This document shows positions 26,722-33,637 of a DNA stretch of 64,000 nucleotides, piece by piece. The translations under genes were made by a program, and so were the position numbers. The stretch is from the NCBI RefSeq assembly GCF_032062105.1, contig NW_026941605.1, positions 1 to 64,000 on the forward strand, read 5' to 3'. The notes under the pieces were generated by a model that saw nothing but the letters and a program-made list of their open reading frames with translations, had not been told where the DNA came from and did no database searches. Origin of the DNA: Saccostrea cucullata (lineage: Eukaryota). The stretch's first letter is position 1. Every line of letters begins with the position of its first letter.

Positions 26722-26812
26722 CCGCCCCAGCCCGGGGTTGAACTCTCGACCTACGGAATCTGTCTCCTAGCAGTGCAGGAACAGCGCGCTAGACCGCTCG
26801 GCTATCTAGGCA
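26722..26812 (-). other. tRNA-derived (SINE-head-like) sequence
   Basis: GCCTAGATAGCCGAGCGGTCTAGCGCGCTG (A box, Leu/Ser-like D arm) and GAGTTCAACCC (B-box-like); no canonical anticodon arm. Confidence 0.55.
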
Positions 26813-28972
26813 AGTCTAAAACTTGCTTTCGATGCCGATGGAATTCTCGCGGCGCTGCCCTACACTACACGGTCATTGAGAATAGAAGTGAGATACAGTT
26901 ATTTTGACATTAGTTTATGTGCTTCATAAATAATAATAATAAATTTTGGGTTAAATATGTCACTGGAAGCATAAAACTTAATTTTCCGTCCGTCTACGTC
27001 ACTTCCGTTCAAACCAGAAGTAGCTAAAAATGACTTACTTTTGCAATAATTAACATAGAATTTGAGGATTTCACCATTTTTAGTCGTCTTTACGCATTTT
27101 TTTATAAATGAAAGTTACTTCCGGGCAAATCAGGACGGAAGACCTACTCGTTGCTTTGCAACGAGCTTTGCTCTAGTTATTCATTGTTTTCTTCTACTTC
27201 CTAGACTCCAACTTTGAAGCTTCATACCTCACTCAATTTTTAATAAATTTTGCTCAAATTTCCAGGCATATAGACGTTACTAAACTCTCTCAGAATGCCT
27301 CTAACATTTCAAAAATTCACTTCCGCTATTGAGTTATTTTCCTTAAAACGAAAATTTATGGGTTTTCATTTCCAGACAAAGCTCGGGGATGGCAAAAGCT
27401 GGAGCAGAAATTCTACTGATTTTAGATAAAAGAAGGATAAAAGTTTGGTTTTTGTTTTTCAATTTCTCTTTTCAAAATGGTGCCGTACAGGGGTAAAAAA
27501 TAAGAATGCCTAGAAGAGCGAAAATTAACAAATATTTTGCTTTTTATCTTCTAAACTAACAATATTTCGTAAAAACATATAGAATAAAATTTGTGCAGAA
27601 TTACAAGATCATTCAACTGATATCTCGGAAAAAGGGCTGACCCCTAAATTAAGGGATCTAGAGGGGCCGAAATTTTTTTCCTCAAAAAGTATTGAAAATT
27701 TGTTATACATCAAAGAAGCAAAGTTGTTCAAAATGTCTAGTAAAATCTTTCGAGATCATCCAAATATGTCCTGTGACGTCACTTCCGGGCATACCGGAAG
27801 TAGTCAGAAAATGCACATTGTTGTCGTTCTTGACACATTTTGGGGAAATATTTGTCACTGGAAGCATAAAACTTTATTTTCCGTCCGTCGACTCCACTTC
27901 CGGTCGAACAGGAAGTAGCAAAAATGGCTTACTTTTGCAATTACAACATAGTTTGGAAGATTTAAATTATTAGAGATGCCATTTTTCTTTTCTATTTTTT
28001 TTTTTAATTAAAGTAACTTTTAGTCAAGCAGGACGGAAAACCTACTCGTTGCTTTGCAACGAGCTTTGCTCTAGTTAACTAGTATTTTCATTTTATTCAG
28101 AAACATAAACATAAGAGTAATCTTCTTTGCAATGTTGTTTATTAAGCTTTTACTTGTTACAGGGTCAATATATCAATACATAAATCTATACATTGTTCCA
28201 ATAAATGGTGTAAAGTTTACTGGAGTTGATCATTCAATTGCAATCTGAACCGCCATAAGGCCCCAGGTTACATAATCATATTACAAATGCACCACATATA
28301 GGTAGTAATTTACAATCATGAATGATTTTCATGCATAATGGTACAGAAACCTTCTGTCATATCAATTGTGAACACTAAATAATTATGAAAAAGAAATTAG
28401 GTAATAAAGAATTTATTTACTGCCTGAACATTCAATAGACCAGAATTTTTTGGGGTAATAGAACACAATGAGCTGTTCCCCGCTCCTCGGGAAAAAATAT
28501 TCTGGTCTATTGACTGCTAAGGCATTAAATAACTATATTAATAAATAGTTTACAGCAAAATGGCTTACAAGAGCTGACGTGTGCTATAGCTATATATTTA
28601 AAATGCATATTCAAATTCATCTGCTATTTCTACTATCATTTGAATTAAGAAAATATTTTTATCTTTATTTACAATACATACTAAAAAGCAAATACTGTTT
28701 TCTGAATTGTTAGAAGACATACTTGAACATTAATAATAAAAAGAAAGAGAAAACTGATAATACACTTTTTTCTAACGTATTCAGGTTAACAAATTAACAA
28801 AAGTATGTTTGTAATAAAAACTAGAGCAAAGCTCGTTGCAAAGCAACGAGTAGGTCTTCCGTCCTGTTCGACCGGAAGTAGCTTTCATTTTTAACAAAAA
28901 TGAGAAATAACGCCAAAAAATGGGTTGAATCATCTAAAACTATGTTAATTAATGCAAAAATCAGCCATTTTT
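26757..28972 (+). repeat. Donor arm of a 2.2-kb near-perfect inverted duplication
   Basis: Reverse complement of 31246-33460, including non-repetitive DNA; identical ORF translations at 27692/32244. Confidence 0.95.
26945..28074 (+). mobile_element. Two tandem family-A HINE (non-autonomous Helentron) copies, 5'-truncated
   Basis: Both end in GGACGGAA(G/A)ACCTACTCGTTGCTTTGCAACGAGCTTTGCTCTAG-TT (27176, 28074): subTIR, short hairpin and CTAG. Confidence 0.8.
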
Positions 28973-29773
28973 GGCTACTTCCGGTTTGACCGGAAGTGAT
29001 GACGACGGGTGGAAAATTAATTTTTATGCTCTCAGAGACACATGTTACCTAAAAACTGGTCAAGAACGGCAAAAATATGAGTTTTCGCACTACTTCCGGT
29101 TTGGCCGGAAGTGACGTCGAGGACGTGTTTTGACGACCCCGATGGATTCAGCTTGAAATTTTGAACAACTTTGCTTCTTTGACGTTTTACACATTCTCAA
29201 TACTTTTCGAGATATAAAGAAAAAAACTTTCGGCCCCTCTAGGCCCTTAACTTTAGGGGCCAGCTCTTTTTTCGAGATACCATTCGAAAGATCTTGGAAT
29301 TCTTCACTTCTTCTGTTCTACATGTTTAAACAAAATATTTGCAGGTAAAAAACTATCGTAGAAAAGGTGTCAAAATTTTGAAATTCGCAAAAGGACTATT
29401 TTCGGGCCATAACGAGCTTCCGTACATAGCAATATCGGTAAATATGAAATACGTTCCGCACAACTACATTTATTGCTCTATTATCACTGAAAATCTCAAG
29501 TTTCTATCTAAAGCCGTTTTCGAGAAAACTCGCGGACAAACTAACCCTCTAAAATTCACTAAAATGCTAAAATCTCGGAACCAGAAGTGACGTCATCAAA
29601 ATAAAAAAAAGTATTTCTAGATTTTTTCTAGTTCCATCAGCCCTGAAAGTTTCATGAAAATCCATCGAGCCGTTTCCGAGAACTCGCGTGCACAAAATCG
29701 GTAAGAAAAAAAAGAAAAAAACTGTGGAAAATAAAAATAACAGAAAGGTCTTCCGTTGGAAACGAAAGACCTT
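28821..29773 (-). mobile_element. Family-A HINE, full length
   Basis: 5' hairpin AAGGTCTT(C/T)CGT..ACGGAAGACCT and 3' hairpin + CTAG; T-rich site. Confidence 0.82.
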
Positions 29774-31397: not shown

Positions 31398-33460
31398 TTT
31401 TTATTACAAACATACTTTTGTTAATTTGTTAACCTGAATACGTTAGAAAAAAGTGTATTATCAGTTTTCTCTTTCTTTTTATTATTAATGTTCAAGTATG
31501 TCTTCTAACAATTCAGAAAACAGTATTTGCTTTTTAGTATGTATTGTAAATAAAGATAAAAATATTTTCTTAATTCAAATGATAGTAGAAATAGCAGATG
31601 AATTTGAATATGCATTTTAAATATATAGCTATAGCACACGTCAGCTCTTGTAAGCCATTTTGCTGTAAACTATTTATTAATATAGTTATTTAATGCCTTA
31701 GCAGTCAATAGACCAGAATATTTTTTCCCGAGGAGCGGGGAACAGCTCATTGTGTTCTATTACCCCAAAAAATTCTGGTCTATTGAATGTTCAGGCAGTA
31801 AATAAATTCTTTATTACCTAATTTCTTTTTCATAATTATTTAGTGTTCACAATTGATATGACAGAAGGTTTCTGTACCATTATGCATGAAAATCATTCAT
31901 GATTGTAAATTACTACCTATATGTGGTGCATTTGTAATATGATTATGTAACCTGGGGCCTTATGGCGGTTCAGATTGCAATTGAATGATCAACTCCAGTA
32001 AACTTTACACCATTTATTGGAACAATGTATAGATTTATGTATTGATATATTGACCCTGTAACAAGTAAAAGCTTAATAAACAACATTGCAAAGAAGATTA
32101 CTCTTATGTTTATGTTTCTGAATAAAATGAAAATACTAGTTAACTAGAGCAAAGCTCGTTGCAAAGCAACGAGTAGGTTTTCCGTCCTGCTTGACTAAAA
32201 GTTACTTTAATTAAAAAAAAAATAGAAAAGAAAAATGGCATCTCTAATAATTTAAATCTTCCAAACTATGTTGTAATTGCAAAAGTAAGCCATTTTTGCT
32301 ACTTCCTGTTCGACCGGAAGTGGAGTCGACGGACGGAAAATAAAGTTTTATGCTTCCAGTGACAAATATTTCCCCAAAATGTGTCAAGAACGACAACAAT
32401 GTGCATTTTCTGACTACTTCCGGTATGCCCGGAAGTGACGTCACAGGACATATTTGGATGATCTCGAAAGATTTTACTAGACATTTTGAACAACTTTGCT
32501 TCTTTGATGTATAACAAATTTTCAATACTTTTTGAGGAAAAAAATTTCGGCCCCTCTAGATCCCTTAATTTAGGGGTCAGCCCTTTTTCCGAGATATCAG
32601 TTGAATGATCTTGTAATTTTGCACAAATTTTATTCTATATGTTTTTACGAAATATTGTTAGTTTAGAAGATAAAAAGCAAAATATTTGTTAATTTTCGCT
32701 CTTCTAGGCATTCTTATTTTTTACCCCTGTACGGCACCATTTTGAAAAGAGAAATTGAAAAACAAAAACCAAACTTTTATCCTTCTTTTATCTAAAATCA
32801 GTAGAATTTCTGCTCCAGCTTTTGCCATCCCCGAGCTTTGTCTGGAAATGAAAACCTATAAATTTTCGTTTTAAGGAAAATAACTCAATAGCGGAAGTGA
32901 ATTTTTGAAATGTTAGAGGCATTCTGAGAGAGTTTAGTAACGTCTATATGCCTGGAAATTTGAGCAAAATTTATTAAAAATTGAGTGAGGTATGAAGCTT
33001 CAAAGTTGGAGTCTAGGAAGTAGAAGAAAACAATGAATAACTAGAGCAAAGCTCGTTGCAAAGCAACGAGTAGGTCTTCCGTTCTGATTTGCCCGGAAGT
33101 AGCTTTCATTTATAAAAAAATGCGTAAAGACGACTAAAAATGGTAAAATCCTCAAATTCTATGTTAATTATTGCAAAAGTAAGTCATTTTTAGCTACTTC
33201 TGGTTTGAACGGAAGTGACGTAGACGGACGGAAAATTAAGTTTTATGCTTCCAGTGACATATTTAACCCAAAATTTATTATTATTATTTATGAAGCACAT
33301 AAACTAATGTCAAAATAACTGTATCTCACTTCTATTCTCAATGACCGTGTAGTGTAGGGCAGCGCCGCGAGAATTCCATCGGCATCGAAAGCAAGTTTTA
33401 GACTTGCCTAGATAGCCGAGCGGTCTAGCGCGCTGTTCCTGCACTGCTAGGAGACAGATT
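31246..33460 (-). repeat. Inserted arm of the inverted duplication
   Basis: Reverse complement of 26757-28972 with only a few substitutions. Confidence 0.95.
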
Positions 33461-33637
33461 TAACGTAGCTTTAGAGGAGTCGAACCATTTTTAGGCCTTA
33501 TTTCTCATTTTTGTTAAAAAATTAAAGCTACTTCCGGTCAAACAGGACGGAAGACCTACTCGTTGCTTTGCAACGAGCTTTGCTCTAGTTATGTTCCCCA
33601 AACGAAGTTGGGGAACATATTGTTTTTATTCTGTTTC

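Follow-up and report, generated by a model that had tools for sequence, protein, structure and literature searches.

Repair synthesis that is initiated by homology and then runs beyond it, as found in mammalian cells, is known as one-sided invasion. In that setting, copying of kilobases was initiated by homology and ended by end-joining to the second end; the sister chromatid provided the donor in the form of a direct repeat, and the joins carried microhomology or added bases, with resection of the second end (PMC5104497, 2016). At yeast double-strand breaks, local fold-backs give templated inversions, in which the end at a break by an inverted repeat primes on the inverted copy, is displaced and is joined with 0-5 bases of microhomology, leaving a longer inverted repeat (PMC11724301, Yu et al. 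2024). The break was induced there, an imperfect repeat of 10 bases, with a loop of 41 bases, acted as primer, and insert lengths were 2 to ~150 bases; the same report notes comparable homology-initiated events elsewhere. Fold-back priming at breaks near natural inverted repeats also underlies yeast fold-back inverted duplications, where the chromosome, capped by a hairpin, turns dicentric and a secondary rearrangement then stabilises it (PMC10622511, Al-Zain et al. 2023). For rolling-circle elements, filler-DNA and end-bypass models of Helitron capture have been put forward, the former predicting short homology at both flanks of the captured DNA (PMC6544945). We have analysed a stretch of 64,000 nucleotides from the oyster Saccostrea cucullata (GCF_032062105.1, contig NW_026941605.1, positions 1 to 64,000; hereafter the window), in which an inverted insertion of 2190 bases interrupts one of two inverted elements, A and B, that we assign to the HINEs (non-autonomous Helentrons). 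The locus is probably a repair accident of a known type, and an unusually clear case of it.

Self-BLAST and global alignment returned a single inverted alignment, of 30434-33460 with 29776-26757, whose parts differ sharply in identity. Up to 31270, A and B agree at 689 of 841 columns (~82%); the seven full 100-column bins from 30491 to 31186 are 64-87% identical, and the final mismatch of this diverged part lies at 31245/28973. From 31246 to 33460, the forward strand is the reverse complement of 28972-26757 with six differences in ~2215 columns (99.7%), namely five transitions (32619, 32857, 33083, 33102 and 33145) and a one-base indel in an A run (28005). The bin containing the switch is 94% identical and the later bins 98-100%, so that the shift from ~82% to 99.7% is abrupt, and it occurs in exact homologous register. 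A sequence-only reading of the locus had ended the divergence at ~31246 and followed the copying for 2.2 kb to 26757, as the alignment does; its description of the forward copy as identical to the reverse one holds as near-identity. We also rejected a simple inversion between the two elements, which would flip the spacer but not duplicate the flank.

Junction 1 closes the 841 columns of homology in register with the inverted donor. The switch may lie anywhere within 31246-31270, and the last 84 bases of B before the putative break site match A at all but six positions. At junction 2, the template end and the resumed tail (D) share one T, in line with the little or no microhomology proposed earlier. 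That D resumes close to the departure point, and that removal of 31271-33460 in silico restores a colinear element, also held: B (to 31270) followed by 33461-33590 aligns to A and to the neighbouring element E without a gap at the join, and the best score among 23 cuts of B, in 2-base steps, was obtained at 31270. HINE similarity restarts at 33460 in three of the four other copies (A, E and C1) and only from 33500 in the fourth, G. The marks of a hybrid templated insertion are present together, with junction 1 in register, one base of microhomology at junction 2, a recipient that is colinear once the insert is removed, and an intact donor, including the repeat on the donor side.

Colinearity suggests that D is the tail of B itself, and we have weighed this against an origin in two separate events, in which an inverted duplication was joined to another HINE tail (that of a later cluster copy, with loss of the sequence between, or a free truncated one). 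Three public runs (X1, X2 and X3, the last two being one sample) were found with the 736-base flank (word shares of 0.20 and 0.10, one run unindexed) and aligned to 29840-33640. Head-to-tail HINE joins are common in X3, e.g., 33588 to 30435 in 78 reads, C1 is a free tail, and the six window copies compared do not assign D to B by subfamily. An unrelated tail would, nevertheless, have to start within the 26-base switch zone by chance, which has a probability of 2.7% if starts are spread evenly over an element of 960 bases and 7.4% if tails measure 50-400 bases, both being assumed distributions. We regard two separate events as improbable.

The polarity of the duplication was read from the public runs, in which 33301-33460 behaves as a high-copy repeat. 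Behind 33460, loose ends are present in 1191 X3 reads; over the 30 letters compared, their consensus agrees with the sequence left of 26757 at 29, and an X2 contig agrees with it at all 30. The repeat is whole on the 26757 side, whereas its copy is cut at 33460, between matches resembling an A box and a B box; hence, the forward arm is the derived copy and the arm at 26757 the ancestral one. The label tRNA-like for this repeat rests on matches to what we take to be the A-box (26804-26794) and B-box (26743-26735) patterns; ARAGORN returned no tRNA in the window, and Rfam gave four sub-threshold matches over 26500-34700, none of them a tRNA. The copying stopped 13 bases short of the B-box-like match, and a (TA)20 run (26641-26681) lies 75 bases past the stop; as a matter of speculation, either could be a barrier to synthesis.

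These end points also bear on a Helentron-driven 3' transduction, by end bypass, of the flank of A into B at a TT site. The insertion point does lie within TT, and HINEs are described as inserting preferentially at T-rich or TT sites and as capturing host DNA (PMC4067079). However, end bypass begins at the 5' end of an element (PMC6544945), whereas this copy starts 130-154 bases from the 3' end of A, in the register of B, and ends in the middle of a repeat with no HINE terminus. Such a transduction is hardly credible.

Taken together, we consider the locus probably to be a one-off germline repair scar, in which a break in B used the inverted A as primer partner, 2.2 kb were copied and the end was joined to the waiting tail. 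The starting locus would have consisted of the flank, HINE A (-), the spacer, a complete HINE B (+) with tail D, and further HINEs. Breakage of B near 31270 would have left two ends, the left one exposing a 3' end able to pair with A 2.3 kb away (2322 bases to the pairing site), through a fold-back of its own strand or through invasion of the duplex of A, in cis or on the sister. Primed synthesis would then have run through the tail of A and 2.06 kb past its end before release, and the new strand would have been end-joined to the right end at a single base of microhomology, with the net register kept. That the return is exact in spite of the lack of homology is most simply explained if a second end was waiting. 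Fold-back and strand invasion appear about equally likely, the former needing resection past A (at least 2.3 kb) and the latter a double-stranded A.

The sequence-only reading had proposed that a broken HINE invaded its inverted neighbour and that synthesis ran past the homology, by one-sided synthesis-dependent strand annealing or microhomology-mediated break-induced replication (SDSA/MMBIR). One-sided, homology-primed synthesis from the inverted neighbour is retained, with fold-back standing level with invasion, while MMBIR fits poorly because junction 1 closes a homologous stretch of ~840 bases (82%) and because the strand comes back to where it departed. Initiation by microhomology only, through MMBIR or fork stalling and template switching (FoSTeS), was rejected, as the 841 columns of 82% homology close with a 25-base exact run. 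A fork that switched template from ~31270 and returned without a two-ended break (FoSTeS/MMBIR or a four-point switch) would yield the same product. The continuation of the template past junction 2 resembles the start of D at 10 of 13 bases in one register, a weak and post hoc hint (1.1% of 5000 random window 30-mers score as high) of a likeness that might have guided the return. Yet the actual join has one base of microhomology, the product follows D from its first base, and the resembling patch lies 2 bases out of register; an exact return would also be easier with a second broken end waiting. A fork switch is, thus, an unlikely source of the insertion.

Several observations weigh against a repair scar of this kind. 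No identical run shared by A and B exceeds the 25-base zone in length, but others measure 20, 21, 22 and 22 bases, so the switch site is not sharply special. The nine cloned breakpoints of the mammalian study included no blunt joins (PMC5104497), the yeast fold-backs reach only ~150 bases (PMC11724301), and a free, 5'-truncated tail, C1, exists nearby. All five substitutions fall within the inner HINEs, which make up 51% of the length (p = 0.035); at three of them the copy has the state of related elements and at one the template does, the fifth being ambiguous. No junction-spanning reads were found in the public runs (single-copy depth in X3 ~0-3) among the joints (15 of 254) and loose ends (18 of 1071) listed. 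The 31270-to-33461 joint of an insertion-free allele was likewise absent from the listed joints, although intact B+D reads might align straight through at 90%.

The lack of spanning reads would also be compatible with an artefact, i.e., a chimeric or fold-back molecule or an assembler jump from B to the inverted A. Junction 1 is a plausible jump site for an overlap assembler or an amplification chimera, and the five substitutions could reflect polishing by mis-mapped HINE reads. A jump would account for junction 1 only, whereas junction 2 has no homology and still falls at the departure point. Moreover, fold-back reads give a symmetric palindrome and not inner arms of ~82% likeness around a 657-base loop, and five of the six differences are transitions, not indels. 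An artefact is, therefore, quite unlikely.

One X1 contig aligned to 31412-31725 and then continued with 369 unaligned bases at the expected place of the A tail; it may come from a paralogue or allele that lacks A. Depth in X1 and X3 over bin 31491-31617, which is part of the copied non-HINE DNA, was at or below the single-copy level and, hence, gave no sign of amplification, and neither the window alignments nor the public reads gave any sign of composite movement.

As to age, the two arms are identical at 741 of 741 bases of the non-HINE flank, where three contigs of X1 show 19 differences in 672 bases. If X1 is from the same species, the flawless flank argues that the template lay in cis, on the same haplotype, and that the event is much younger than typical alleles. 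The substitution level is 0.23% (95% range 0.07-0.53%), but the five substitutions were set aside as a clock because they cluster in the inner HINEs; conversion or polishing could cause such clustering. The earlier description of the event as recent is, thus, supported in a relative sense only. A variant of B at 31241 was also considered as a repair error, a proposal weakened by the 24 of 1220 X3 reads that lack the common T, since other copies may carry the variant.

The assignment of A, B+D, E and G as HINEs is based on structural features, and so is their comparison with the described oyster elements. HINE hallmarks are subterminal inverted repeats, a 3' palindrome and T-rich ends (PMC4067079, PMC7492417). 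In A, B+D, E and G, a 5' subterminal repeat is paired with an inverted partner and occurs again near the 3' end, where the same 11-base repeat stands before the 3' hairpin. This hairpin has an 8-pair stem, ends 13 bases from the element end and folds at -8.5 kcal/mol; a 5' hairpin folds at -12.0 kcal/mol in B and is also found in E. The elements have T-rich ends, lack a long open reading frame (ORF), with none of at least 150 aa in 26757-34604, and cluster in tandem. A T flanks the element ends; as to the insertion of HINEs at T-rich targets with no target-site duplication, the window paralogue shows an empty cluster and not a single-element empty site. X3 depth is in the hundreds to thousands on HINE bins compared with ~0-3 on single-copy bins. 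The family is, thus, like the described HINEs in its subterminal repeats, 3' hairpin, T-rich ends, tandem clustering and non-coding nature. It differs from Cg_HINE and DINE-1 in their central tandem repeat or microsatellite, a frequent though not essential feature of HINEs, which was not detected here: tandem arrays are described within Pacific oyster HINEs (PMC7492417), whereas TRF found none inside A, B, C or E. Exact-match scans for the HINE 3' end gave no hit in metagenome contigs and none in viral contigs.

The template comprises 2216 bases. Although the copied DNA had been called unique flank, only ~370 of these bases look single-copy, by subtraction: 154 are the tail of A, 1135 belong to two inner HINE pieces (26943-28077), ~277 are 88% like 42497-42775, ~120 form a small element with 39-base inverted ends, and ~160 are the high-copy repeat. 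The small element (28413-28532, 120 bases, inverted ends 87% matched) was carried along in the copied flank. The coordinates of the features are collected in Table 1.

Table 1. Features of the insertion locus in window coordinates, with putative HINEs named by letter
Feature	Position	Strand	Remarks
High-copy repeat with tRNA-like box matches	26682..26916	-	Approximate bounds, the left one set by (TA)n; from read depth and loose ends (33301, 33460)
Template arm, ancestral copy	26757..28972	+	Self-BLAST and alignment; polarity from public reads
C1, 5'-truncated HINE tail	26943..27181	+	~240 bases; self-BLAST, alignments
C2, HINE without 5' end	27181..28077	+	Kin to the copy at 39812-40752; self-BLAST, alignments
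Non-HINE flank	28078..28818	.	Same in both arms; carries the 120-base element and 277 bases paralogous to 42497-42775
HINE A	28819..29776	-	Likely priming partner and template start; second-family 5' hairpin module precedes at 29777-29833
Spacer between A and B 5' ends	29834..30433	.	600 bases; single in window, multi-copy in public reads
HINE B, 5' part	30434..31245	+	Subterminal repeat and 5' hairpin; 659/807 identical to A
Junction 1, switch zone	31246..31270	+	25 bases identical to A 28972-28948
Net insertion	31271..33460	+	2190 bases: tail of A (to 31399), inverted flank, inverted C2 and C1, truncated tRNA-like repeat
Junction 2	33460..33461	+	One shared base (T) between template end and resumed tail
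HINE tail D	33461..33590	+	130-base 3' end, colinear with B; 119/130 identical to the tail of A
HINE E	33590..34604	+	Next in the head-to-tail cluster reaching 38814; self-BLAST and alignments

Compared with the described systems, the locus, if read as a repair scar, shares with the yeast fold-backs the break by an inverted repeat, the priming on the inverted copy, the short-microhomology join and the longer inverted repeat that results. Here, however, the primer is a transposon pair of ~840 bases and 82% likeness, the insert has 2190 bases, and the event is natural. With the mammalian events it has in common the copying of kilobases beyond the homology and the end-joining to a second end, but the donor is inverted and no register is lost. 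The likeness to templated sequence insertion polymorphisms lies in a templated insertion carried in a genome, and that to DUP-TRP/INV-DUP rearrangements or four-point template switches in having an inverted repeat at one junction and microhomology at the other. In this oyster locus, in contrast to those types, the template is adjacent and inverted, the strand returns, and there is no flanking duplication or triplication. In the yeast fold-back inverted duplications (PMC10622511) the break also lies near natural inverted repeats, whereas here the chromosome would have been restored by rejoining. As in the Helitron filler-DNA model (PMC6544945), host DNA would have entered the rolling-circle element through a break within it, with both of its ends preserved; the model predicts short homology at both flanks, while here one flank has long element-to-element homology and the other a single base. 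No report of HINE-primed inverted insertions in bivalves was found in the literature searched, which omits most subscription papers, and the excerpted text of a preprint on bivalve structural variants (10.64898/2026.02.10.705023) has no occurrence of "templated" or "microhomology".

The surrounding window is AT-rich animal DNA with Polinton-like ORFs (DNA_pol_B_2; rve with Chromo), a retroelement pol, two fibrinogen C-terminal exons and tandem arrays of 143-173-base units, one of them a 166-base unit. The cluster of HINEs and spacer (28819-38812, 10 kb) lies ~60 bases beyond the stop codon of a fibrinogen-domain exon. The paralogous exon copy at 42497-43195 lacks the whole HINE cluster, its site being empty, with 13 diverged bases overlapping both sides. 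Downstream, 34605-38814 holds a second HINE-like family, with three head-to-tail copies and 148-161-base central repeats, and TRF arrays do occur in it (34783-38480). Its 5' hairpin module is present at 29777-29833, 33590-33640, 34602-34660 and 37090-37144, i.e., ahead of A and E as well as of its own elements. The join of 33640 to 30434 was seen in 631 X3 reads, and such a two-family 5' end seems common.

Farther out, satellite-like arrays lie at 49292-50598 (166-base unit), 58637-59228 (143-145) and 62388-63164 (169-173). An ORF of the long-terminal-repeat (LTR) retroelement pol type (14945-17206) is inserted next to the Polinton-like region, and ORFs at 50887-57043 resemble, by eye, fragments of long interspersed nuclear elements (LINEs). 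The Polinton-like region also contains a second, larger inverted pair (1-2822 and 4523-7318; 92% overall) that extends past the window start, with an integrase-type ORF in each arm and a 1.7-kb spacer. Identity is 75-88% by the spacer and mostly 93-99% farther out, and the pair is either two head-to-head elements or an older inverted duplication.

Regarding its consequences, the insert is non-coding, lies >5 kb from the fibrinogen exon stop codon, gives no sign of function and is most likely neutral. Joined to the tail of A, the 5' part of B is now a chimeric but complete HINE whose end lies at 31399; D provides a second end at 33590. The event added three HINE 3' ends by copying, in agreement with the earlier proposal of extra HINE copies without transposition, and left an almost perfect inverted repeat of 2.2 kb. 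Taken alone, this allele carries little weight, since the copied DNA is non-coding and experiments in yeast and mammalian cells have already revealed the pathway. Its insert is, however, >10 times longer than the cited yeast fold-backs and, because the two primer copies differ by 18%, one can read where the switch occurred, which template was used, in which direction it was copied and where the strand returned.

A bolder proposal, which we put forward as doubtful, is that, in this kind of genome, inverted HINEs lying close together repeatedly prime fold-back insertions of kilobases and that this locus is a capture intermediate still beside its donor. If so, reading once past the inner terminus (31399) would be enough to mobilise the 2.2 kb of host DNA between the 5' end of B and the 3' end of D. 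Break repair would then be linked to the capture of Helentron cargo, and HINEs would have a transposition-free route to extra ends. Were such events frequent, pairs of inverted HINEs would contribute measurably to structural variation, and natural intermediates that can be counted would become available for the filler-DNA model of capture.

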